A stretch of 64,000 bases of DNA. Source: Caulobacteraceae bacterium (GTDB lineage: Bacteria; Pseudomonadota; Alphaproteobacteria; Caulobacterales; Caulobacteraceae). The stretch lies in assembly GCA_019748055.1 (NCBI GenBank), contig JAIEQC010000050.1:24817-88816 (forward strand). Direction: 5' to 3'. The notes under the pieces were generated by a model. That model did not search any database. It saw only the letters and a list, made by a program, of their open reading frames with translations, and was not told the DNA's origin. Each line of letters starts with the position of its first letter. Within the stretch, counting starts at the first letter, position 1. Positions 29,021 through 55,505 of the stretch are shown here, piece after piece. The position numbers were made by a program, and so were the translations under genes.

Positions 29021-29530
29021 TCAGAAGGCGGGGGCCGTCGCCGTCCGCCGGTCGAAGTCGTCCTGGGCCGCGACGGTCGAGCGCCGGTACATCAGCGCCT
29101 CGGCCACATGCGACCGCCGGATGCCGTCGGCGCCGTCCAGATCGGCGATGGTGCGGGCCAGTCGCAGCGTGCGCGTCCAGCCGCGCGCGGTGAGCCCCGC
29201 CGCCTCTCCGGCCCGCGCCAGCAAGGCCTTGCCGGCCTCGTCGGGCGACGCGAACCGCTCCAGCGCCTCGCCCTCCAGCCGCGCGTTGATCCCGCCGGTC
29301 CGGGCCGTCTGGGCGTCGCGCGCGGAGGCCACCCGGGCGGCCGCCTCGGCCGTGCCCTCCGCCGGCGCCGGCAGAGCCATGTCCGCCGCGGTCACCGGCG
29401 GAACCTCCACCGTCAGGTCGATGCGGTCGAACAGGGGGCCGGAGATGCGCCCGGCATAGTCGCGCTGGCAGCGTGGAGCCTTGCCGCAGGCCCCCTTGCC
29501 CGCACCGCCGAGGCCGCAGCGGCATGCTCG
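29021..29530 (-). pseudogene. comM: comM (YifB/Mg-chelatase-like ATPase), 3' fragment only
   Basis: CRCGLGGAGKGACGKAPRCQRDYAGRISGPLFDRIDLTVEVPP...ARGWTRTLRLARTIADLDG...HVAEALMYRR matches only the last third of ComM. The AAA+ and Lon-like N-terminal two thirds are absent, and similarity stops near 29525-29535. Confidence 0.75.
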
Positions 29531-29588
29531 TGTTGCCCTTTTGCTTGCCGGCATTCAGCGATCCCTAGTCGCGCCTCGGCGAGAATCT

Positions 29589-29969
29589 GTGCTGCTGCAG
29601 GATGCGAGCGTTGGGCAACGACTTGCGCATCGTCGCTACGAGTTGGGACATCGAATAGTCGATGCCGCGGGTCTAGGCGGCGTCGATACAAAAACATGGA
29701 TGGGGTGGGAGCGGGAGGAACACGCACCGACCGTTCAGCACTATCCTGCGCTCATCCGGTACCTCGGATCGGAGCCATGGGCGGTGCCGGATACGCTCGG
29801 AGACAGGCTTCTTGCTCAACGTCGGCGCCTGGGATTGTCGATAAAGCGTGCTGCGATAATCTCGGGTGTCGATGAGGGAACGTTTCGGCGGTGGGAGCGC
29901 GGGGACTGGAAGCCTCAGCCCAGATCGCTCTCTTTGATCGAGGCGTTTCTAGAACGGGCGGAGATTTAG
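29589..29969 (+). CDS. tandem-HTH (XRE-like) regulator at island edge
   Basis: Two HTH-like repeats, each ending in W-x-W/R-E-R (VDTKTWMGWEREEH and VDEGTFRRWERGDW). The GTG at 29589 is a plausible start. The tracked ORF start at 29481 overlaps the comM remnant. Confidence 0.6.
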   Translation: MLLQDASVGQRLAHRRYELGHRIVDAAGLGGVDTKTWMGWEREEHAPTVQHYPALIRYLGSEPWAVPDTLGDRLLAQRRRLGLSIKRAAIISGVDEGTFRRWERGDWKPQPRSLSLIEAFLERAEI

Positions 29970-30079: not shown

Positions 30080-31171
30080 TCATGCGAGGGCACCGGTCGC
30101 GTGATTGGCGCACTGGTCAAGGAGCCTGCAGAGCGGGGTGTCGGGCTCGTCAATCATATCCAAGAGACGTTTCAGGACCGCTCCAGGTCTGTCTACAAGG
30201 TCGTTGCGACTGAAGGTGTCCGATGGAAGGCCCAACCCCCTTAGGGGCGTGGCGGGACGGCCTTCAAGGACCGTCGCCGTCACCCATGGCAGGATCCAGA
30301 ACAGCACAAGCGCGTGGCCGAGCCGATATCGCACCGCAGCCTGGTTTGCGTAGCTCAGGGCCTGGCCCAGCGCGACGTGGGGGCCGTCGTTACGAACGGC
30401 GGCGGCCCTGAAGCGGGTGATCCAGCCGCGTTCGCGGGGATAGCCCGCCGTACAGAAGTAGAGGGTAGGGTCTTCAAGGATGCGGCGCGGCGACGTGAGC
30501 GCGCCGGCGCGCTCCACGCGACGGCGGGTCGCGCCTGTCAGCGCTCGCGCGCGCAAGAACAGGCGCGTCGTCTCGGCATGCAGCTCGGAGCCGTCCGGCG
30601 CATATTCTCGTTGCAGGCCGCCCCACCGCTGATAATCGATGAGGCGATAACCGCAGGCCTTGTCGTCAACGAGCGTCTCTTGGGCGTCATCGACTTCGTA
30701 GGCGCGGAGCACCTGATCCACTTTCAGCTCCAGTTCGCGGTAAGCGAGCAGACGCGAACTGCCGTCCTGGGCACGACCAATCGATCCTTCGAGCAGAACA
30801 TTGGCGCCAGCGGCTGCCCTCATGCGCTCGAGGTATCCTGGCAAATAGATCGTGTCGGCGTCCCCCTGCAGAATCAGGACATCGTCGGGGCGAAGGCCTC
30901 GCTTTTGCGCAAGGTCAGCCGCATGCAGCACACCCCGGTGCCTGGGGGGCACGAAGCCGCGCCTACGTTCACGCACGCGGTGGATGCGACCATCACCACT
31001 CGAGACCAAACCACCAAGAATGGTCCACGTGGCGTCTGTCGATCCATTGTCCACGAGGATGATATCCGCGTCGGGTGGGAGTGGGTTCGACTCCGTCAGC
31101 GAATTCGCCGTCGCATGGACATGCGCCTCCTCATTCAAGCAAGGGATGACGATGGCCACATGCGTCGCCAC
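30080..31171 (-). CDS. family 2 glycosyltransferase
   Basis: VAIVIPCLNEE...IILVDNGSTD...LQGDADTIY (DxD) are GT-A/GT2 motifs. Last gene of the operon, 4 nt after the GNAT stop. Confidence 0.85.
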   Translation of the reverse strand: MATHVAIVIPCLNEEAHVHATANSLTESNPLPPDADIILVDNGSTDATWTILGGLVSSGDGRIHRVRERRRGFVPPRHRGVLHAADLAQKRGLRPDDVLILQGDADTIYLPGYLERMRAAAGANVLLEGSIGRAQDGSSRLLAYRELELKVDQVLRAYEVDDAQETLVDDKACGYRLIDYQRWGGLQREYAPDGSELHAETTRLFLRARALTGATRRRVERAGALTSPRRILEDPTLYFCTAGYPRERGWITRFRAAAVRNDGPHVALGQALSYANQAAVRYRLGHALVLFWILPWVTATVLEGRPATPLRGLGLPSDTFSRNDLVDRPGAVLKRLLDMIDEPDTPLCRLLDQCANHATGALA

Positions 31172-31175
31172 AGGG

Positions 31176-31631
31176 TCAGCGCTGCCGAACCCAGCGCATC
31201 AGGCACTGTGAATGGTCGATCGGGGTGACGTCTTCGTAGCCCGCCGCCGCCGCTGCCCGCCTCGACGCCTCGTTGGATTTGCGCATATGTGCGTAAATCA
31301 TGTCGTACTGGCTTTCCTCACTCGCCAGTCGATAGGCGATGCGGCCGATTCCGAGGCCTTGGCTCTGCCGGTTGAGGTATATTTGGATCGAGGCGTGGGG
31401 GCCGATCGGCGGTTCGTTGATCCAGTTGATGTAGACCCGCCCCGCGCGGGAGTTTTTAAGGAAGACCGACCAGGCTTCCCCGCCGGGGCCGCCGCCAGTC
31501 TCCGCCCCACCCTTCCCGCGCGAGAGCCGGACGTCGCTCGGCGAGACCCGCTCCTCCGGCGGAGCCGGCGCGACGGGTCTGGGCTTGGGTGTGGCGCGGG
31601 TCCCCGGACGCCGCTTGGGAGATTTAGGCAT
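31176..31631 (-). CDS. GNAT-like acetyltransferase with basic Pro-rich N-terminus
   Basis: The ATG at 31631 gives MPKSPKRRPGTRATPKPRP.... The core QIYLNRQSQGLGIGRIAYRLA...NEASRRAAAAAGYE resembles the GNAT motif A/B. Confidence 0.6.
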   Translation of the reverse strand: MPKSPKRRPGTRATPKPRPVAPAPPEERVSPSDVRLSRGKGGAETGGGPGGEAWSVFLKNSRAGRVYINWINEPPIGPHASIQIYLNRQSQGLGIGRIAYRLASEESQYDMIYAHMRKSNEASRRAAAAAGYEDVTPIDHSQCLMRWVRQR

Positions 31632-32607
31632 AGAGCTCTCCCAAGGTACCACGAAGTGCGCGATCGGCGGCGTCCCATAGTTCGGACGGGAAGAATCCCG
31701 GCGAATAGGCGATGATCGCATCTTCGATCCGGTCGACTACGCCGCCACGCCGAAGCGCCATCGCCACGCTGCGAATTCGCGCGATGACGGCCTCGGCCGG
31801 CGGATCGAGCCGCTCAGCTCGTTCTGACCAATCCCCGTCGCCATCGAACCGGTTATTGAAGTAGTCCATATCCACGTGGAGGAGCACGGGACCGGAGGCA
31901 AGGTTCTCGATCCATTCGCTGATGTCCGGGGTGAGCATGTAGCGCCCCGCACCGCAGCCAACTGCCGGATGTAGCCTGATGGCCGGACGTCTGGCATCGA
32001 GATCGATGAGATCATCCTCCTGCAGATGCGGCTGGATCTCGAAGAGGGCGGTTGATGCAGCTTTCGGCGGCTGACAGAGGTGCCTAACCTCTGCGTTTGG
32101 AAAAGCGTGCAGCACCGGCGTCAGGAAGCTGCCCATCCCGACCGCGCCGCTCCCGAGGGCCCGTCGGACGCTTTCCGGCTCCCCGAAATCGAAAAGCCCG
32201 CCGGCAATCGGATCACGCCAGCCGCCGTCGCCCACGAACAGACGCGGCGACATCAGGTCACGATGATCATCGACGTGCAGAATGGTCAGGTGCGCATCGC
32301 GACGTGTGCCGGAAGCTGCAGCCCAGCGGGCCCAGCTGACCAATGTCCAAGTGTCGTAAAGCGCCGTCGTTACGCGGCCCTGACGCCGTACCGCCTCCAC
32401 CATCTGGCCAAGCCCGGGCGCCCAGCCCTTCAGGTGATCAGTCAGCAGTGGGTCAATGTGTCGTTCTGGCTCGTCCGGCCACCGAAAGTTCAGGCGCCAG
32501 CCGCCAGCTTCAGGCGTCGCCACCGCGTCACGATCGCAGAAGTAGTCTCTCAGGCGTGCGTGCCGGGCGTGTGGTTCTTCCGGCAACCGGTCCCATGGCA
32601 ACCACAC
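31624..32607 (-). CDS. arginase/deacetylase-fold-like protein (UPF0489-like)
   Basis: LHVDDHRDLMSP and LLHVDMDYFNN resemble the metal-binding DxHxD and DxD motifs of the ureohydrolase fold. A GTG at 32607 lies 2 nt after the radical SAM stop. The tracked ORF extends to 32685. Confidence 0.55.
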   Translation of the reverse strand: MWLPWDRLPEEPHARHARLRDYFCDRDAVATPEAGGWRLNFRWPDEPERHIDPLLTDHLKGWAPGLGQMVEAVRRQGRVTTALYDTWTLVSWARWAAASGTRRDAHLTILHVDDHRDLMSPRLFVGDGGWRDPIAGGLFDFGEPESVRRALGSGAVGMGSFLTPVLHAFPNAEVRHLCQPPKAASTALFEIQPHLQEDDLIDLDARRPAIRLHPAVGCGAGRYMLTPDISEWIENLASGPVLLHVDMDYFNNRFDGDGDWSERAERLDPPAEAVIARIRSVAMALRRGGVVDRIEDAIIAYSPGFFPSELWDAADRALRGTLGELYA

Positions 32608-32609
32608 GC

Positions 32610-34736
32610 TCAAGCCGCCAGTGATACTGCGCCCCGTGAGCGGAGCACGGCGGCGAGCGCAGCGCCCGCCCCGGTGAGCTGGCACTGCTCCAGCGTCGCG
32701 AACGCCTGAGCCAAATTCCGGTCGGTGTCCGCCAGTTGGTTGCGCGCCCGGGCGACCATTCTGGCCGGTCCCGAGGCCAGCACATGCTCCCAGAAGCGTC
32801 TCAGTTCTACGAAGACGAAGATGGCGTGCAACAGGCCGGAGACTGGCCGTAGGTCTTCACGCCAAGGGGAGACGACCAGATCCCCCGGTAGCGTTGTGGG
32901 GAAACGGCGCTCAAAGAGATAGAGCTTCTGGTGCCGATGCTCGTGAAGCAGAGAGTCCGCCAGATCGTAGGCGTCGACCATGCCATTTCCCTGACGAACC
33001 GAGACGAAGAGGGCACCGGGCACCGCATCGTCGCTGAAGGACACGATCTTGTCTGGATGGGCCGTCGGATCGCGGATGAACTGCACTGCCGGGCTCGTGA
33101 CCTCGATCTCCCGGCCAAGCGCCGGCCGCCATTCTGCAAGAATGTGTAGCGCCTCATCGACGAGCGGCCGCGCGGCGGCGGCGATCTCCGACGGCTCGAA
33201 CAAGATCGCGTCGCCAAAAGGCCTGCGGAGCCAGCGATCGTCCGCCCCAACGACCGGGGTCTCGATGGGAGATTGGCACAGTCGCTCGATCTCCTCGACA
33301 TAGTCAGCGTCCAGCGCCAGTGGCGCGCCGGCGACGTCACAGACAGTTCGCCCGTCCCGCGTCGCAAGCGTCACATTGCTCCAAGCGACTACGCCGGGTT
33401 GCCAGCTTATGTTGTCCAAGCGCTCTGTCGACAGGGCCAGGATGCGCAGCGCGGTCTCTCCTGTTTGGCCGCCCCGGGTCGCAACGTAGCGCAACGCCGC
33501 CTCCAGAGATGCGCGATGAGCTCGGCCGGCGCCCTCGCGCAGGCTCGCCATCACAGCCTCACCCGTCTCCGCGAGCTCAAAAGCGTCGATATCCATGTCG
33601 AGCTCTGGCTCCCCCACCTCGGCGTCAAGCGCTTCGCTCAGGCGCAACCGAGCATGGGCAATGAGCGCCATCATCTCTCGGCAGTAGACAGTGGGATTGT
33701 TGAAGCCTGCCTCGCTCCACCGGTGCGGCACGGCGCCGCCACCACAGATTTCCGAGACCGCGCAGGCCTGGCACGTCGCACTGAGTCCGGATTTCGAGAG
33801 CAGACGACGATGTGCTTCCAGCTGAGGGGATCTGGCCGACTCGGCGATGGACGTGTTCAGCACACTCCCGCCGAGCTGGGTGTCGTTGCCCACCACCTTC
33901 AGAACATCGAGGTCGTGGTAAGTCCCATCGGTTTCTATGGAGATCAGGCTCACGTCGCCGAAGCCGAACGCATCAGTCCCGGACGGCAACCCCATGATGG
34001 CGTCAAGGAGTGCCTCAAAACTACGGACGGACAGTGATGGATACTGATCGAGCCAGATGTCGAAGGCTCGTTTGAGCCAGCGGACGTATAGATCCGGGTC
34101 CTCGCCCCTACCCTGCGGCGGGCGTCCGTGGTGCGCGTCTGGCAGGAGGAAGTCGATACGCGGAGGGGCGTGGTCTGCGAAATATCCCAAAATCTCAGCG
34201 GGATCCGTCCTCCCGTCGACGACGGCGATCACCCCTGCGAACACGCTGGGCCTGAGCTTCAGGCGCTCAAGGGCGGCTTCGACCTTTTCGAAGCTTGAGC
34301 GGCGCCGACGAGTTGTTCGATGGAGGTCATTTACGGTGCGCGGGCCGTCAAGGCTAAGCGACACGCCGATGCCAGCAGCCTCAAGAAGGTCGAGGGCTGC
34401 GTCGTCCAGCAGCAGGCCGTTCGTCTGCAAACCAATGTCGACGTCGATGCCAGCGCCAGCTGTCTCGCGGATCAGACGAGCGAACTCACAGAGCGACGCC
34501 GCGCCGGCCAGAAGGGGCTCGCCACCGTGGAAGATGACGGCAGCCCGCTTCAGGTCGATGGCTCGAGCATACTCCGCCAGCCGAGCTGCGAAGGCCTCGC
34601 GGTGCTCGTCACTCAATACCTGCGGCATCGTTCGCCACGATTGGTCGGCGTGGTGATAGATGTAGCAGTAGTCGCAATCGAGGTTGCAACGGGACGCGAC
34701 CTTGACGAGGAAGGATGAGATCCTCGTGGGCGTCAT
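32610..34736 (-). CDS. radical SAM/SPASM peptide maturase with C-terminal HExxH domain (FxsB-like)
   Basis: N-terminal SRCNLDCDYCYIYHHADQSW (Cx3Cx2C), a SPASM-type cluster CQACAVSEICGGG...YC, and a roughly 300-aa C-terminal extension with LLHEHRHQKL (HExxH). Confidence 0.85.
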   Translation of the reverse strand: MTPTRISSFLVKVASRCNLDCDYCYIYHHADQSWRTMPQVLSDEHREAFAARLAEYARAIDLKRAAVIFHGGEPLLAGAASLCEFARLIRETAGAGIDVDIGLQTNGLLLDDAALDLLEAAGIGVSLSLDGPRTVNDLHRTTRRRRSSFEKVEAALERLKLRPSVFAGVIAVVDGRTDPAEILGYFADHAPPRIDFLLPDAHHGRPPQGRGEDPDLYVRWLKRAFDIWLDQYPSLSVRSFEALLDAIMGLPSGTDAFGFGDVSLISIETDGTYHDLDVLKVVGNDTQLGGSVLNTSIAESARSPQLEAHRRLLSKSGLSATCQACAVSEICGGGAVPHRWSEAGFNNPTVYCREMMALIAHARLRLSEALDAEVGEPELDMDIDAFELAETGEAVMASLREGAGRAHRASLEAALRYVATRGGQTGETALRILALSTERLDNISWQPGVVAWSNVTLATRDGRTVCDVAGAPLALDADYVEEIERLCQSPIETPVVGADDRWLRRPFGDAILFEPSEIAAAARPLVDEALHILAEWRPALGREIEVTSPAVQFIRDPTAHPDKIVSFSDDAVPGALFVSVRQGNGMVDAYDLADSLLHEHRHQKLYLFERRFPTTLPGDLVVSPWREDLRPVSGLLHAIFVFVELRRFWEHVLASGPARMVARARNQLADTDRNLAQAFATLEQCQLTGAGAALAAVLRSRGAVSLAA

Positions 34737-34744
34737 CGGCGCGC

Positions 34745-34909
34745 CTACGAGCGATTGTGGCGGTGATGCATCCGGTCGTAGCTGGTGATCACTTCGCTCG
34801 CCTGAGCGTCCGAGCGAAGGCGGCCCTGCAACCGCTGAAGAGCCGGGTTGGCCATCTTGGCCTTAAGGACGGACGTCCGGAGCGTGGTAGTCTCTGCAGC
34901 TTGCATCAT
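34745..34909 (-). CDS. 54-aa putative RiPP precursor peptide (not in ORF track)
   Basis: The minus strand reads GAAGGAGATCGCT-ATG ATG.... Translation: MMQAAETTTLRTSVLKAKMANPALQRLQGRLRSDAQASEVITSYDRMHHRHNRS. Strong RBS. The stop lies 8 nt before the radical SAM ATG. Confidence 0.6.
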   Translation of the reverse strand: MMQAAETTTLRTSVLKAKMANPALQRLQGRLRSDAQASEVITSYDRMHHRHNRS

Positions 34910-35019
34910 AGCGATCTCCTTCAAGATAGAGCTAACCTCGATCTACGAATACCGCAACGTGCAATTCCAACCTCCTGAGGGCTCCGCTGTACTAGAGGCT
35001 CGCCTCTCGACCCGCTGGG

Positions 35020-35367: not shown

Positions 35368-35754
35368 TCAGCCGAGTTTCAAACCTTGGGGTTGCGCACC
35401 CGTCACACCGACAATCCGGGGACCGCGCACGAGCCAGCCCAACGTCACGGGGACTAGGTGAAGGAGATGGCTGAGGTGAAAGACATGCGGTTCCAACCCT
35501 TCCCAGCGCGGGCCAAAGTTCAGCGACAAGACCATCAATACGATCCACCAGCCGGTGAGATTTGCGTTCTTCAAGCGTTGAAACGTCAGAACCACGAGGG
35601 CGATGTAGATCGGCAAACCGGCGAGCGTAGCTATCCAGTCTGAAGCTCCCAGCATCCTCAATAGGACAGGGATAACGATGATTGCCGCGATGAGTGCGAC
35701 ACTGGCCCAGCGGTAGTTCTGGATTGCGCACAGACGGTGAAAGAACGTCGCCAT
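35368..35754 (-). CDS. DUF805-family inner membrane protein
   Basis: 128 aa, three to four TM helices, and QRLKNANLTGWWIVL, which resembles the DUF805 RLHD..SGWW motif. Confidence 0.7.
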   Translation of the reverse strand: MATFFHRLCAIQNYRWASVALIAAIIVIPVLLRMLGASDWIATLAGLPIYIALVVLTFQRLKNANLTGWWIVLMVLSLNFGPRWEGLEPHVFHLSHLLHLVPVTLGWLVRGPRIVGVTGAQPQGLKLG

Positions 35755-38862: not shown

Positions 38863-39450
38863 TCATGTCGCGTTGAGACTGCGGCGCACAACAGCCGGAA
38901 GGCTCGTGCACATCTCCACCCGTTCACGCCCAATGCAGGCGATGACCTCTGCTACGTGGTGCGCCGCCACACGCATCCTCGCATCCACCAACGCTCCATA
39001 CAGTGCGTCGCCGAGGCCAGCCTCGCCTAGCCCAGCGCGGACCCCGGGCGTTAACAGCAGGTCAATGGTCGACGCGACCACAAGGCCAGGAAAACGGACA
39101 GCCGCCAGCGACGTCGCCTTGCGCTCGTCGATATAGGCCACCACGCCGGCCCGTTCGGCGTATACCAGCGTCGCCGCCTCACCGTCATCCAAGGTCTGGG
39201 CTGCATCACCGGCCAGAAGGCTAAGAAAAACGTCTTCATCCTGGGGGTCTAGATCGACCACCTGCATCAGGCCGAGATGCAGCCAGACCGCCACGTGATC
39301 AGCCGCATGCCGCCCCTTATCGCGGCCTCGCTCCAGTTCGGTGAGCGCGGTCCGCGTGATTTCGAGGCTTCCGTCGTAGAGCCCCAGAATCCTGTCAGCG
39401 CAGCCCGTGGCGGCGAGATTGATCCAGACGCTCGCATCGGCGACGGCCAT
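38863..39450 (-). CDS. PIN-like nuclease-fold protein
   Basis: N-terminal VADASVWINL (Asp), DDGEAATLVYA (Glu) and YIDERKA (Asp) spaced as in PIN-like domains. Starts 7 nt after the XRE-ImmA stop. Confidence 0.55.
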   Translation of the reverse strand: MAVADASVWINLAATGCADRILGLYDGSLEITRTALTELERGRDKGRHAADHVAVWLHLGLMQVVDLDPQDEDVFLSLLAGDAAQTLDDGEAATLVYAERAGVVAYIDERKATSLAAVRFPGLVVASTIDLLLTPGVRAGLGEAGLGDALYGALVDARMRVAAHHVAEVIACIGRERVEMCTSLPAVVRRSLNAT

Positions 39451-39457
39451 GCGCGCC

Positions 39458-40627
39458 TCAGAGCATCGGACGGGAGGACGCGTTATCGACCTCCTCGTCC
39501 TCGAAGGCGTCGATCAACTCGCGGATTTCCACCCGATCGAGCTGCAAGAGCCCCGCCAACTGGCCTTCGCTCAGGAGGTTCTTCTTCCAGGCCTCGCGCG
39601 CCAGCATGCCAAGCCGCAATGACACGGGCCGGGCCGCGTCCGCCTTTCGGGCGTCGACGCTCCAAGCGTCGCCGAGGACCTGCCGCGCCTGGTCGTTGGT
39701 GATTCCGCCGTTGTGCTCGAACCAATCCCAGGTTCCAACCTTGGTCAGGCCAAGCTCTTCCAGTCGGCGAACCATGGCTTCGCGCGCCACGCCAAAGGCA
39801 TGGGCGAGCACGATGACGTGGCGCCGTGTCAACGCGGAACTGCCAGCGGTGACATCCCGGAACATGGCCATTACGGAGCGGGCCGGGGTGAGAAAAGCCC
39901 GGGCGAAGGCGTTCGCGTAGCGCTCTTCGCGACTGGCTTCGGGTGAGCCGTCGTAGAGGGCGTCCGGTGCCCGCCGGGTCGAGACCAAATGGCCAAGCTC
40001 GTGACCGCCGGTCTGGGCGCGGCGCTCGCGCGGGTGGGCGGCGTTCAGAAGAATGCAGGGACCGGCGGCCTCATGGTAGGCGTAGAGGCCAGAGATCTTG
40101 GCCGGCAGGCGGCGAACGAACACTCTGACGCCGAGCTGAAGTTCGAGCAGCGAGACGATGTCGTGCACCGGCGCTTGGCCGATGCCCAGCCACTGGCGCA
40201 ATTCAGCCGCGTCGTGCTCCGCCTGGAGGACTACGTCTCCAGGCATGAGCGGGCGCTCGGGCGGATCGTTTCGGGTGCGACGCACGCCGAGGAGATCCTC
40301 GAGTTCCAATTCTGCCTGGACGAGGGTGGTCAAGAGGGTGACGGCGCCTTCGACCCCAGCATCCTGCTCGCCCATCCGTCGGAAGCGGGGCTTGAGATCG
40401 ACCTGCACCGCTTCACGTCGCAACAGCGCGTTCAATGAAACGCCATATAGCGACGCCAGCCGCTGCAGCTCGTCGAGCTTGGCCCTACGTTGGCCCTGCT
40501 CGATGGCGACCACAGTCGTGCGAGCTACCTCAAGGGCCGCGGCGGCGGCTGCCTGGGTGATCCTTGCCGCCTCCCGCGCGATCCGCAGCCGCTCGCCGAC
40601 TTCATGAGGGGATAGCGCTTCACTCAT
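39458..40627 (-). CDS. XRE HTH - ImmA/IrrE zinc-metallopeptidase fusion
   Basis: The ATG at 40627 gives MSEALSPHEVGERLRIAREAARITQAAAAAALEVARTTVVAIEQG (the HTH). The peptidase motif is TGGHELGHLV (HExxH). The start overlaps the upstream stop (ATGA). Confidence 0.85.
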   Translation of the reverse strand: MSEALSPHEVGERLRIAREAARITQAAAAAALEVARTTVVAIEQGQRRAKLDELQRLASLYGVSLNALLRREAVQVDLKPRFRRMGEQDAGVEGAVTLLTTLVQAELELEDLLGVRRTRNDPPERPLMPGDVVLQAEHDAAELRQWLGIGQAPVHDIVSLLELQLGVRVFVRRLPAKISGLYAYHEAAGPCILLNAAHPRERRAQTGGHELGHLVSTRRAPDALYDGSPEASREERYANAFARAFLTPARSVMAMFRDVTAGSSALTRRHVIVLAHAFGVAREAMVRRLEELGLTKVGTWDWFEHNGGITNDQARQVLGDAWSVDARKADAARPVSLRLGMLAREAWKKNLLSEGQLAGLLQLDRVEIRELIDAFEDEEVDNASSRPML

Positions 40628-42000
40628 TGCTGGACGGCCGAAAGGCCCCGGACGAAGGAGGTCGGCGCGAGCGCTGCAAGGAACCGATGCCATTCGGCTG
40701 CGTGACGGGCGAGCAGCGAACGCAACAACGCTTCGATGGCGACCGGATCTTCGTGCAGGACCTCTGCAGTTTCCCGGGCTACGCGCCGCACAGCGCGGAC
40801 CGCGCTCGGCGCGGTTGCTAACTCGGCGAGATGATCCATGTGCAAAACGCCGGCGATCGCGTGCTCGCGCATGGACTCGGTGATGCCAGTGAACCCGGGG
40901 GCCGCGCCAGCCTCCAAGGTCGGCGCAGAGAGATCTTCCCAGATGTAGGAGTCAGCCGGTTCGGCCAAGCCGGCGTTGAACATGCTCATGCGGCGCAGCA
41001 TGCAGGCCGCACAGATGCCGCACTGGCGGCGATGGCTATCGACGGAGGCGTGCCGCGACTGCTGCCAGCAGGAGCGGGTGTCGTCCCAGGTCGGCGGGTT
41101 AGGAAGGGCAGCGGCCTCGGCTAGAGTCTCGGCCTTAGTGGACCATAGCCGAGGGTATTCGTAGCGCGCACTCGACCCCACCAGGGCCTCGAAGAGAACT
41201 TCCATCCGTGTGGTGAAGAGCGGGTGGACGCGGTAGTCCGGGTAGATCTGCCCGCTGACGGCCATCATCGGGCCGAAGGCGCCTTGGCCGCTCTCGGTCA
41301 CGACGATGCGCTCGACGTTCGCAATCTGTGCCGCGACTCCGGTGACGACGGCGAACTTGAAGCCCCGCGACCGGGCGGACGATTCCTTGCGAGCCGGAAC
41401 GCGGACCTTGTAGGGCACGAGGGTGAAGGCGGCCCGGCGACGTTCGCGAAGCGGATCGTCAACGCCAACGGAACCGAGCCGCACGCGCACCAAGGCCGAG
41501 CCGCCCAGAGCTTGTGCGATAAGGGCGTGGACAGCGCGGGAATCCAGCCCATCGCTATAGGGCATGATGGCCTTGGCATTGGCTGGCAACTCCAGGCTCA
41601 GAGGACGCATGGTCTCGGCGCTCTTCTGGCGCGCGACGAAGCTGAACGACCAGGTGTCGCCGGTGAGGAAGGTCAAGGCGTCCTCGAGGGCGCTCTGGAC
41701 CGGAGCCGACGACCAAAGGCCCGGATCGTGCACGGCGACGCGGACGTTGAAGGTCCGTGCCCAAGAGACGGTCGAGCGCGCCTTGGCCGCGTCGCAATAT
41801 TCCGTCGTCGCCGCCACCACCAAGAGGTCGAAAAGCTCCGGGCGCCAATTCGAGAAGAAGTAGGTCTCCAGCCCTTCGGTCGACAGGCGGATCGCGGCGC
41901 CGAGTTCGGCAAGCTCAGCGCCGGGGCGGACCTGAACCCCGGGCTCAACGATGTCCACGACCATGGGCTCATCGACCAGTCGGACAGCAACGGTGGTCAC
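40624..42000 (-). CDS. QueC-like PP-loop ATPase with N-terminal extension and Zn-ribbon
   Basis: PYSDGLDS is a variant of the SGGxDS PP-loop. SCWQQ...x17...CGICAACMLRR resembles the QueC SCY...CGxCxxCxLR zinc site. The N-terminal domain of about 140 aa is unassigned. GTG start overlaps the upstream stop (GTGA). Confidence 0.7.
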   Translation of the reverse strand: MTTVAVRLVDEPMVVDIVEPGVQVRPGAELAELGAAIRLSTEGLETYFFSNWRPELFDLLVVAATTEYCDAAKARSTVSWARTFNVRVAVHDPGLWSSAPVQSALEDALTFLTGDTWSFSFVARQKSAETMRPLSLELPANAKAIMPYSDGLDSRAVHALIAQALGGSALVRVRLGSVGVDDPLRERRRAAFTLVPYKVRVPARKESSARSRGFKFAVVTGVAAQIANVERIVVTESGQGAFGPMMAVSGQIYPDYRVHPLFTTRMEVLFEALVGSSARYEYPRLWSTKAETLAEAAALPNPPTWDDTRSCWQQSRHASVDSHRRQCGICAACMLRRMSMFNAGLAEPADSYIWEDLSAPTLEAGAAPGFTGITESMREHAIAGVLHMDHLAELATAPSAVRAVRRVARETAEVLHEDPVAIEALLRSLLARHAAEWHRFLAALAPTSFVRGLSAVQQ

Positions 42001-42563
42001 AGGCGCACTCCTTCGTCGAGACCGGTCCGATCGATGGGCGAAGTTAGATCGCGGGCCGACACGCCGGCCACCAGCGCCGAGGCGAGCCCCTTCAAATCCA
42101 CGGCAGCCATCGACTCGGTCAGCCGCGCGCGCATCCCGGCGGCCTTACCCTGCGAGGCCTCGCGCCGGTAGTGCTCCTCCACCTGACGTTGGCCGCGGTC
42201 CGCGCGCTCGACGAGAGTCGCGAACGCGGCGTCCTCCAAGGCTTCAGCACCCCGACGGCCGTCACGCAATGCGTCCAGGGCGTTATCGGCTAGCAGCGCC
42301 TCCATAGGGTTGGAGTGCTGCGCGCGCAGGCGGCAGACCTCCTGCTTGGCGACTTCAAGCATCAGCAGGCCCCTTTCATCGTCGCCGAGGGCGGCGCGCA
42401 TCTGGCGCAAGAAGGACTGGCCGATTTCACGCCAGTCTGCCGCCAGCGCCGCCGGGACCGCCTCCGCCACTTCCGCATTGGTGTGGGCGGCGTTGCCGGC
42501 AAGCTTCGCCAGAGCCTTCCATTTGGTGCTCATCTTCAGGGTCTTGTAGGGGCCGTCGCTCAT
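41997..42563 (-). CDS. hypothetical helical protein (first gene of QueC-like operon)
   Basis: 188 aa, Ala/Glu/Arg-rich, predicted helical. No motif recognised. Confidence 0.6.
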   Translation of the reverse strand: MSDGPYKTLKMSTKWKALAKLAGNAAHTNAEVAEAVPAALAADWREIGQSFLRQMRAALGDDERGLLMLEVAKQEVCRLRAQHSNPMEALLADNALDALRDGRRGAEALEDAAFATLVERADRGQRQVEEHYRREASQGKAAGMRARLTESMAAVDLKGLASALVAGVSARDLTSPIDRTGLDEGVRL

Positions 42564-54320: not shown

Positions 54321-55505
54321 TCACCCGAGCTCTGCGCTGAACGGGCGGCTGGGGGCGCCGTCGATCATGAGCTTCACGTAGAAGTTCCTGTTTGGAAGGT
54401 TGAGGAGGTCAATGACCTCAAACGTCGGCTGGAGCTCCGCGGCTAGCCTCGGGGCATCCTCTGCCCCGACGCGGAAGACCACGAGCGATCCGGCATTCCC
54501 TAGGACGGCATGTCGGACCTCTGGCTCCAGCTGGTGAAGATGCTGGTGCGCAAGCGTCAGCCCGACCCCGTACTTCCGAAGCTCGGCCAGCATGTTGGCG
54601 AACGAGAGCGTGGTGAAGCTCTGGAACTCGTCGAGGTACAGGAAGAAGGGACGGCGTCCGGCGGCGGCGTCTTCTGCTCGGCTCATAGCTGCGAGACCGA
54701 TCGTCGAGGCGATCAGACTGCCGAGAACCGCAGCGCCGTCCGCCCCCAGCCGCCCCTTCGCAAGGTTTACGATCAGGGCCTCTCCCCGGTCCATGATGCG
54801 GCGAAAACTCAAGGGCCGCTCCGGCGCGACGAGAATGCGATGGAGGCGCGGATCGGTCAGGAGGGCCCCGAGTTTGTTCTGGATTGGAGCCACGGCCTCC
54901 AGTCGTGTGCGATCCGGATAGGCGGCGAACTCCTCTGTCCAGAACCGCCGAACGGTGGGATTGCGTATCTGCCGCACCAGCGATCGACGGAACGCCTTGT
55001 CCGAGTAGAGCGCGAGAATGTCCGGCAGCGTCGAACCGTCACGCTCAAGGAGCGCGTACAGGCTGTTGCGCAGCACGTGCTCCATGCGAACGCCCCACGC
55101 GTCGGGCCAGAGCTTCCTGAAGGCATCAAGGAGCCCGGAAGCAGCCAATGGGATCTTGTCGTCCCTGACCCTGCGAAGCGGATTATAGCCGTACGGCTGG
55201 TCGAGATCGGCAGCGTCCAGATAGTGGAGCCGCGGTCCCAGCACTGCTGCGGCCCCATCTCGCACACGTTCTGCCAAGTCGCCATGCGGGTCGATGAGCG
55301 CGAAGCCACGGCCCGCAGTGACGTCCTGGCCAGCAAGCCGCTCGAGAAGGGCCGACTTCCCCACGCCGGTCTTGCCGATGATGTAGAGATGCGAAAGCCG
55401 GTCGCGCTGCCGTATCCCGAACGAGACGCCGCGACGGTGAAATGTGGTTTGGCCGACGTATGTCACGGCCTCGGAGGCGGGCGCCATCACCAGACGGTAC
55501 CGCAA
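54321..55505 (-). CDS. T4CP/TraD-HerA-like P-loop ATPase (no TM segment)
   Basis: Walker A IIGKTGVGKS, Walker B-like FFLYLDEFQSF, and LRKYGVGLTLAHQHLHQL. This is the architecture of soluble type IV secretion DNA-binding-domain ATPases. Confidence 0.8.
   Translation of the reverse strand: MRYRLVMAPASEAVTYVGQTTFHRRGVSFGIRQRDRLSHLYIIGKTGVGKSALLERLAGQDVTAGRGFALIDPHGDLAERVRDGAAAVLGPRLHYLDAADLDQPYGYNPLRRVRDDKIPLAASGLLDAFRKLWPDAWGVRMEHVLRNSLYALLERDGSTLPDILALYSDKAFRRSLVRQIRNPTVRRFWTEEFAAYPDRTRLEAVAPIQNKLGALLTDPRLHRILVAPERPLSFRRIMDRGEALIVNLAKGRLGADGAAVLGSLIASTIGLAAMSRAEDAAAGRRPFFLYLDEFQSFTTLSFANMLAELRKYGVGLTLAHQHLHQLEPEVRHAVLGNAGSLVVFRVGAEDAPRLAAELQPTFEVIDLLNLPNRNFYVKLMIDGAPSRPFSAELG

Follow-up and report, generated by a model that had tools for sequence, protein, structure and literature searches.

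The window analyzed here is a 64,000-nucleotide stretch of a Caulobacteraceae bacterium genome (NCBI GenBank assembly GCA_019748055.1, contig JAIEQC010000050.1, positions 24,817 to 88,816 of the forward strand). It carries a minus-strand run of five consecutive genes at 30080-34909. The open reading frame (ORF) list and direct reading of the sequence give the order as a small peptide, a 708-residue radical S-adenosylmethionine (rSAM) enzyme with a C-terminal HExxH domain, a protein of predicted ureohydrolase fold called P3 here, a GNAT acyltransferase, and a GT2 glycosyltransferase. We assign this operon as a biosynthetic gene cluster for a triceptide-type RiPP (a ribosomally synthesized peptide with post-translational modifications), whose core is of the already known YhhA/ChlB type. 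The reading we favor, with a probability of roughly 0.55, is that the operon encodes a tailored-triceptide pathway on a horizontally moved module, in which the peptide would be crosslinked, hydroxylated, acted on by P3 as an arginase, acylated by the GNAT, and glycosylated by the GT2. A more specific proposal is that P3 belongs to a new, Pfam-undetected clade of peptide arginases, marked by a His-to-Asp swap, that acts on cyclophane-locked arginines and, with the GNAT and GT2, gives rise to the first (acyl-)ornithine- and sugar-bearing triceptides. This proposal is tentative, and we place it at somewhat less than even odds.

Operon organization and conservation

The junctions between the five genes are 8, 2, -8, and 4 nt. 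The start codons chosen for them fit the homologue lengths and alignments; the mechanical ORF of the precursor reaches a TTG at 34924. This arrangement is not due to chance, because the gene order recurs in other genera and in 69 metagenomic loci and the nucleotide similarity to Phenylobacterium sp. VNQ135 is confined to the operon. An initial annotation, made from the sequence alone, had described these genes and junctions as one RiPP operon that ends in a GNAT and a GT2 and encodes neither a protease nor an exporter. The ORF list and the conserved gene order confirm the operon, and matches to PF13302 and PF00535 identify the fourth and fifth genes as proposed. No protease or exporter gene was found in the operon or adjoining it by ORF annotation of the operon and its neighbors. 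A scan for promoter and terminator consensus sequences gave nothing informative in the high-GC DNA of the window.

Genomes were scanned with the 708-residue protein and then searched by tblastn with all five proteins. The peptide-maturase-P3-GNAT-GT2 order is present in Phenylobacterium (P. zucineum has this operon too), Brevundimonas, Novosphingobium, and Hyphomonadaceae, and Sphingomonas sp. HMP6 has the full five-gene set. Sphingomonas SRS2 keeps the gene order, with no peptide detected and a maturase match that begins at residue 99. Shorter versions consist of peptide-maturase-P3-GNAT in an alphaproteobacterial metagenome-assembled genome (MAG) and in the gammaproteobacterium Salinicola, and of peptide-maturase-P3 alone in Insolitispirillum. 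The genes that flank the operon in the window are absent from the related loci in the tblastn comparison, and the nucleotide similarity to VNQ135 covers exactly 30080-34966 and nothing beyond. The P3 alignment, used to scan metagenomes, added the 69 distinct loci. In each of the 38 where this could be assessed (38/38), the gene directly 5' of P3 is a fused rSAM-HExxH gene; 56 of 57 have a GNAT within 400 nt downstream of P3, and a GT2 is present in 24 of the 31 that could be assessed. P3 also stands immediately after a cyclophane rSAM gene in all 15 further contexts examined, and the divergent P3 contexts always run from a small ORF to a cyclophane rSAM gene to P3.

These data bear on the idea that the operon is a plain YhhA/ChlB triceptide cluster whose product comes from the first two genes alone, with the other three as unrelated passengers that serve, for instance, the cell envelope or housekeeping. 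YhhB/ChlB systems have been reconstituted with the maturase alone or with a hydroxylase only, there are YhhB loci with none of the three genes, and L004 has P3 without the other two. The 2, -8, and 4 nt junctions argue against passengers, as do a gene order kept from alpha- to gammaproteobacteria and low-GC metagenomic lineages and the constancy of the rSAM-P3 (38/38) and P3-GNAT (56/57) pairs. No P3 homologue was found outside such clusters among the contexts examined, and the region shared with Phenylobacterium stops exactly at the GT2 stop codon. Passenger genes are a very improbable explanation of this pattern.

The precursor and its radical SAM/HExxH maturase

The 54-residue peptide matches NF041705, the curated equivalog model of the YhhA family of cyclophane-containing RiPPs, at 63.6 bits (cutoff 36). 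Its leader holds the conserved NPALQRLQGRL motif, and its C-terminal core reads ...EVITS-YDR-M-HHR-HNR-S. The last 17 residues (SEVITSYDRMHHRHNRS) are almost invariant across the genome taxa compared, the core is near-identical in seven of the loci (L001-L007) and in 37 metagenomic loci, and near-identical Phenylobacterium peptides carry the NCBI name 'YhhA family cyclophane-containing RiPP'. YDR is the native ChlB motif and HNR forms a YhhB cyclophane (PMC11499958), and the core in the window is therefore made of published substrate motifs. Precursors were located in 37 of 38 metagenomic loci. Their cores are YDRMHHRH(N/S)RS in 33 cases (two with a C-terminal PG extension), YDRMHHKHNRS in two, and FDRMHHRHNRS and YSRMHNRHNRS in one each. 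None of the 37 metagenomic precursors has an Arg-free core, and each P3-linked precursor examined has at least two arginines in its ring motifs. Because the 11 core residues hardly vary between Caulobacteraceae and low-GC lineages, the core may have a single specific function that is conserved, perhaps metal binding.

In the YDRMHHKHNRS variant (L070, L079, and L103, with the precursor 5' of the rSAM gene), Lys replaces the middle ring Arg. This variant is compatible with a site that requires a side chain with an amine.

The initial annotation had called the 708-residue protein an FxsB-family cyclophane enzyme with a C-terminal HExxH domain, and family models bear this out. The protein scores 511 bits against TIGR04269 (FxsB subfamily; cutoff 370), with an alignment that spans profile positions 1-361 of 363, and residues 526-696 score 127 bits against TIGR04267 (α-ketoglutarate (αKG)-HExxH hydroxylase; cutoff 40). 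CNLDCDYC (the radical SAM CxxxCxxC motif) and LHEHRH are both present in the translation, as had been noted, and the NCBI record of the protein already reads 'FxsB family radical SAM/SPASM domain protein'. The subfamily label thus stood; the specific subtype is YhhB/ChlB, as indicated by 483 bits against the YhhB equivalog-domain model NF041707 (cutoff 445), and the chemistry and structures of this subtype are published. An anaerobic sulfatase maturase was rejected as the identity of the enzyme, since the score of 127 bits falls well short of the 349-bit cutoff.

Structural matches point to the same subtype. A PDB search with the N-terminal half returned 9gm3, the ChlB rSAM domain, at E 1.5e-139; the rSAM domain is 56% identical to ChlB, and the alignment takes in the C-terminal Cys cluster. 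Residues 381-697 matched 8s5f (ChlH) at E 1.3e-79. YhhB joins Tyr-C3 and His-C2 to Arg-Cβ (PMC11002830). The fused HExxH domain is an αKG/Fe enzyme that β-hydroxylates Asp and His only once the cyclophanes have formed (PMC12636437), and YhhC yields erythro-β-hydroxy-Asp (PMC12186529). We assign the 708-residue protein as a YhhB/ChlB-subtype cyclophane-forming rSAM enzyme with a fused ChlH-type β-hydroxylase domain.

Two characterized systems resemble the core closely. ChlA/ChlB from Chlorogloeopsis sp. (PDB 9gm3, 9gmc, and 8s5f) shares the fused rSAM/SPASM and αKG-HExxH domains and the YDR motif; the window cluster adds to the published ChlA/ChlB chemistry three tailoring genes, whose own chemistry is unreported in the literature covered. 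A search with the ChlB rSAM sequence did not return ChlB itself, and its top match was 61% identical. YhhA/YhhB/YhhC shares the YhhA and YhhB equivalogs, the Tyr-C3/His-C2 to Arg-Cβ linkages, and Asp β-hydroxylation; YhhC is a separate hydroxylase in the yhh system, whereas this function is fused to the rSAM domain in the window. Arginase-like, GNAT, and GT2 steps are undescribed for yhh in the articles covered (PMC11002830, PMC12186529, and PMC11499958). The ChlA/ChlB system is reportedly the work of Morishita et al. in Nat Chem 2024, and the YhhA/YhhB/YhhC system that of Sugiyama et al. in JACS 2022.

The peptide had been presented as a different, new partner of an FxsB-like enzyme; in this view, an FxsB-like maturase has taken on a precursor of a new kind, and a new RiPP subclass would follow. 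The enzyme passes the FxsB subfamily model and carries the NCBI FxsB label, and the peptide lacks an FxS motif, its last residues being HNRS. The classic actinobacterial FxsA/FxsB systems also share the TIGR04269 rSAM/SPASM subfamily and often an HExxH partner. The window cluster differs from them in its lack of FxS repeats, its YhhA match, and its Caulobacteraceae host; a classic fxs locus was rejected on the missing motif. A new subclass is refuted for the core by the YhhA and YhhB equivalog matches in NCBIfam, by the published ChlB/YhhB substrates YDR and HNR, and by PDB structures of a homologue 56% identical over the rSAM domain, and the idea is scarcely credible. High novelty of the core is unwarranted, because the chemistry and structures of the YhhA/YhhB subtype are published and NCBI labels exist. 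It is the three downstream genes, pointed out in the initial annotation, that are novel.

YhhB-type loci that lack P3 were seen at L024:6173-6886 (a Longimicrobium MAG) and L025:6182-6985 (a farmland MAG). The gene 5' of rSAM at these loci encodes a YhhA-like leader (HPALVRL...), a single YSRS, and then a 'CFPAG...' Hint/intein-like domain. This arrangement resembles a fusion of a cyclophane precursor with a self-cleaving Hint domain. Genes for amine oxidases are found close by.

P3 family, fold, and predicted metal site

P3 has no match in Pfam or NCBIfam. A word-indexed search gave 442 homologues, all 'hypothetical' and without a Pfam domain, and an exhaustive profile search gave 459 representatives of clusters built at 50% identity, of which 404 had E <= 1e-10. 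In a 47-sequence alignment, the motifs LHVDDHRD, HxDxDYFNNR, and SPGFFPxE are invariant. The sole significant match of the family profile in the PDB is 8brp, the 'Peptide arginase' OspR, at E 8.8e-8 with both metal motifs aligned. The AlphaFold (AF2) model of P3 has a predicted local distance difference test (pLDDT) score of 92.2 and a predicted template modeling (pTM) score of 0.91. Foldseek with this model returned the three chains of 8brp (A-C) with E from 2e-9 to 6e-9, a probability of 1.0, and template modeling (TM) scores of 0.51-0.57, with 16-18% identity in the alignment. The next-best matches are at E > 0.01 and other ureohydrolases are far weaker; a conventional arginase or a histone deacetylase (HDAC) was rejected as the identity of P3 because these matches are insignificant. 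The profile and Foldseek matches fit the arginase fold that the initial annotation had recognized for the third gene.

PF12640 is the Pfam family of peptide arginases (PMC12703449), and 37 of the 47 aligned P3 relatives match it below threshold (best E 2.3e-4). P3 has an N-terminal extension of ~75 residues relative to PF12640 arginases. It resembles the members OspR, KspR, PhaR, FlmR, OhkR, and PbsE in its DxHxD and (L/H)xDxDYF motifs and in its location in RiPP clusters with Arg cores. It differs from them in its sub-threshold score, its lack of the EEH(N/H)EAF motif, its N-terminal extension, and its association with cyclophane precursors, which are unlisted as peptide-arginase substrates (PMC12703449). 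From profile and model, we assign P3 as a distant OspR relative with an arginase-type fold that is no formal member of PF12640; it probably represents a new peptide-arginase clade.

OspR holds two Mn ions through His12, Asp39, His41, Asp43, Asp165, and Asp167 (PMC10028609). Five P3 residues, D113, H115, D117, D246, and D248, align to OspR D39, H41, D43, D165, and D167; they stand in the contexts D113-D-H115-R-D117 and H244-V-D246-M-D248-Y-F, the latter aligned with the OspR motif LDIDLDYF. Across 150 divergent representatives their conservation is 141/141, 141/141, 142/142, 142/143, and 142/142, respectively. The sixth position was compared with P0270, a PF12640 member obtained through an OspR-fragment search that returned only two PF12640 fragments. 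At the place of Glu11-His12, P3 has Asp85-Thr/Ser86 (L-Y-D85-T/S86-W). Of 137 representatives, 123 carry Asp at position 85, 11 carry Glu, and 3 carry His. All of these residues are capable of binding metal, and this makes a binuclear-type site of six residues plausible. P3 most likely keeps such a site with a His-to-carboxylate swap.

Several observations weigh against P3 as an arginase. The PF12640 gathering score is unmet by the family: the best relative, P0157, reaches 20.8 bits against a cutoff of 27, and P3 of the window has no match even at E <= 10. The EEH(N/H)EAF motif is missing, and the residue at the position of the OspR MnA ligand His12 is not His in 134/137 representatives. The equivalence of position 85 to His12 rests on spacing and conservation, and hhalign of the P3 profile with P0270 aligned the DxHxD region only.

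These same features fit a different metallohydrolase of the arginase/deacetylase fold, one that is not an arginase and hydrolyzes another C-N bond on the peptide. Its function could be deacylation or editing of the GNAT product, amide hydrolysis, or leader removal, at an MnB/Zn-like site of H115, D113, D246, and D248. In HDAC-type relatives of the fold, the equivalent site works with a single metal. Besides the missing His12 ligand and EEH(N/H)EAF motif and the failed PF12640 membership, this alternative fits the modest TM scores to OspR (only 0.51-0.57 at 16-18% identity) and the lack of a protease gene in the operon. Against it, the constant Asp/Glu/His at position 85 makes a binuclear-type site plausible, OspR is the sole significant match with HDAC and other ureohydrolases insignificant, and the fusion of P3 to GNAT or ATP-grasp domains fits amine unmasking. 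Cleavage of peptide backbones is not known for the fold. We consider a non-arginase P3 unlikely and retain the peptide arginase as the preferred assignment.

Putative tailoring enzymes, proposed pathway, and genomic setting

The GNAT consists of a Pro/Lys/Arg-rich N-terminal linker and a core of ~105 residues with a QGxGIG coenzyme A (CoA)-binding motif, as seen in the orthologue alignment. It scores 26.0 bits against PF13302 (cutoff 25.4). Against the PDB, a single-sequence search returned nothing, and the best profile matches were SpeG/spermidine acetyltransferases at an insignificant E 0.3. The linker resembles those of P3-GNAT fusion proteins, of which P0121, P0134, P0157, P0219, and P0178 are examples, with both domain orders found. 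One P3 is fused to an ATP-grasp domain. Both partner types are amine-acylating, and the fusions thus fit P3 as an amine-unmasking enzyme. The GT2 scores 50.6 bits against PF00535 (cutoff 23.3), and its VDNGS.D and DxD (QxDAD) motifs are invariant in eight orthologues, as are D46, D104, D106, and D170. It has no single-sequence match in the PDB; a profile search gave generic GT2 nucleotide-binding folds over the first ~80 residues only, and the C-terminal two thirds matched nothing known. The single-sequence AF2 model of the GT2 (pLDDT 38) was unusable and was discarded. RiPP-operon glycosyltransferases are known from the glycocins, for example the GT2 enzymes SunS and ThuS. The window GT2 resembles them in being a GT2 with an intact DxD in a RiPP operon, and its similarity to PDB profiles is to generic GT2 enzymes only.

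P3 partners with two maturase families. In addition to YhhB, it follows a maturase of the GrrM/OscB subfamily (404 bits, cutoff 310) at L017 (GC 0.43, core YTRWKRWQR), and the cores are aromatic-X-Arg repeats in both cases. L021 (GC 0.31, core YSRMYHRHSRT) has an unfused YhhB, and L019 (GC 0.53) has the core YSRMHHRHNRS. P3 occurs three times at L015 (GC 0.36, core YDRMHHRHNRS), with a GNAT fused to one paralogue and an ATP-grasp domain to another.

The L015 paralogues (L015:1098-10937, JGI metagenome 3300002334) are 341, 677, and 978 residues long. The 677-residue protein comprises a ParB-like 'DGVHR' N-terminal region, P3, and a GNAT, and in the 978-residue protein P3 is joined to a region with a weak match to ATP-grasp. 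There may be one paralogue for each of the three core arginines. A Cys-rich protein of ~140-210 residues (LGYPxCC ... HxPCSxxC) without a family match is encoded between the GNAT and GT2 in 15/31 metagenomic loci, for example at L022:4286-4819 and L015:4614-5243; it is absent from the window.

The proposed pathway begins with the leader-bound precursor, on which the rSAM/SPASM domain would install three C-C crosslinks, from Tyr-C3 to Arg-Cβ in YDR and from His-C2 to Arg-Cβ in HHR and HNR. The fused αKG-HExxH domain would then β-hydroxylate the ring Asp and His after ring formation. Homology to characterized enzymes supports these two predicted steps. In the third step, P3, as a putative binuclear-metal ureohydrolase, would hydrolyze the guanidino group of at least one ring-locked Arg to give ornithine and urea. 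The GNAT would next acylate the freed ornithine δ-amine, probably with acetyl-CoA as the donor, and the GT2 would add a sugar to a hydroxyl, which may be the conserved Thr or Ser within ITS, the Ser at the C-terminus, or a new β-hydroxyl. Enzymes acting in trans would take care of leader removal and export, since neither is encoded nearby.

The order of these steps has a precedent. In selidamides, a peptide arginase, an optional hydroxylase, and then a GNAT act on ornithine, and acylation is strictly arginase-dependent (PMC8784127). The RiPP arginases PbsE and KgrD accept pre-modified substrates only, with the Arg next to a ring. The selidamide clusters for kamptornamide (KspR/KspN) and phaeornamide (PhaR/PhaI/PhaN) co-encode an arginase and a GNAT, and the window likewise pairs the putative arginase P3 with a GNAT. 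Selidamides are lanthipeptide-type proteusin/Nif11 RiPPs with fatty-acyl GNATs, whereas the window has a triceptide scaffold and a minimal GNAT.

A different order would have P3 act as an arginase before crosslinking, with the GNAT acetylating a hydroxyl or the N-terminus of the peptide instead of ornithine. The order of action is not readable from sequence, and OspR works on linear peptides; PF13302 includes N-terminal acetyltransferases, and O-acylation by RiPP GNATs has been proposed. On the other side, YhhB and ChlB crosslink Arg peptides without an arginase, the natural HHK variant indicates that the maturase tolerates Lys, PbsE and KgrD need pre-modified substrates, and the P3-GNAT fusions point to consecutive steps at one site. 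An arginase-first order is quite improbable, and crosslinking followed by P3 and then the GNAT is the sequence we prefer.

Other points count against the full pathway. Steps three to five are ones that we infer, and the acyl donor and acceptor named for the GNAT and the acceptors named for the GT2 are candidates. The GNAT only barely exceeds its Pfam cutoff, and the GT2 is missing from about a quarter of the loci. The metagenome sample is biased toward close relatives. Arg-containing YhhA loci without P3 exist (L008, L024, and L025), and the co-occurrence of Arg with P3 discriminates weakly because YhhB-type enzymes need Arg anyway. The accessory genes may already appear in the JACS 2022, Nat Chem 2024, and JACS 2025 triceptide papers, which lie beyond the literature surveyed. 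In the open literature that was covered, triceptide tailoring consists of hydroxylation, ADP-ribosylation, and C-terminal amidation, and no peptide arginase is linked to cyclophane precursors.

The genomic setting fits a mobile module. The guanine-plus-cytosine (GC) content drops from ~0.70 to ~0.65 at 30 kb of the window, and GC at third codon positions (GC3) is ~0.72-0.74 in the operon genes compared to ~0.9 in backbone genes. These drops, a truncated comM gene, and defense genes nearby support an island, as the initial annotation had described for this alphaproteobacterium. The five genes appear to form one discrete module that was horizontally moved into a lower-GC island of the Caulobacteraceae genome. 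The coordinates of the operon and of neighboring features are collected in Table 1.

Table 1. Features of the RiPP operon and selected neighbors in the window
Feature	Position	Strand	Details
GT2 family glycosyltransferase	30080..31171	-	363 aa; PF00535
Small GNAT acyltransferase	31176..31631	-	151 aa; start overlaps P3 end by 8 nt; PF13302
P3, predicted ureohydrolase fold	31624..32607	-	327 aa from GTG; mechanical ORF extends to 32685
Radical SAM/HExxH protein, whole	32610-34736	-	708 aa
Linker and αKG-HExxH β-hydroxylase domain (predicted)	32610..33596	-	residues ~381-708; LHEHRH; TIGR04267.2, 8s5f
Radical SAM/SPASM domain, YhhB/ChlB-type three-residue cyclophane synthase (predicted)	33621..34736	-	residues 1-372; CNLDCDYC; TIGR04269, NF041707, 9gm3
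Precursor peptide, YhhA family	34745..34909	-	54 aa from ATG
AGGAG Shine-Dalgarno-like ribosome-binding site	34916..34920	-	6 nt 5' of precursor ATG; read from sequence
HTH (helix-turn-helix) + M78 (IrrE/RmrA-like) regulator	39458-40693	-	PADLOC RmrA, 100.7 bits
QueC-like/QatC-like protein	40624-42000	-	88.8 bits
mad8-like ATPase	54321-55505		

The comM fragment (29021-29554, minus strand) encodes the C-terminal 177 residues only of a ComM/YifB Mg-chelatase-like protein, with PF13335 and the last ~50 positions of PF01078. It abuts an HTH gene (29481-29969, plus strand) and the lower-GC stretch, and the N-terminal half of comM was looked for in the window and not found. These features suggest that an island of 34 kb or more entered comM, or else that a deletion occurred. 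A defense-type gene run lies at 38863-42563 on the minus strand; it holds the regulator and the QueC-like/QatC-like gene of Table 1, with small unknown ORFs to both sides of them. In a metagenomic contig, the Kiwa anti-phage genes KwaA/KwaB (L022:6013-7491) are immediate neighbors of this type of RiPP operon. A 128-residue predicted membrane protein without a Pfam match is encoded a short way upstream of the precursor (35368-35754, minus strand) and is not kept beside the operon in other genomes. Its 'QRLKNANLTGWW' segment, recognized by eye only, we take to be DUF805-like.

The core cluster is a further member of a characterized, automatically annotated RiPP family and by itself adds little. 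By our own calculation, N-acetyl-ornithine differs from Arg by only -0.011 Da in residue mass (156.0899 vs 156.1011), so that acetyl-ornithine products could escape low-resolution screens. The large 'hypothetical' P3 family would be missed by PF12640-based arginase mining and would extend ornithine chemistry to cyclophane peptides. If the proposal is correct, the product would join β-hydroxy-Asp, imidazoles, and acyl-ornithine in one molecule, and the accessory module predicts a defined, testable pathway to more heavily decorated triceptides.

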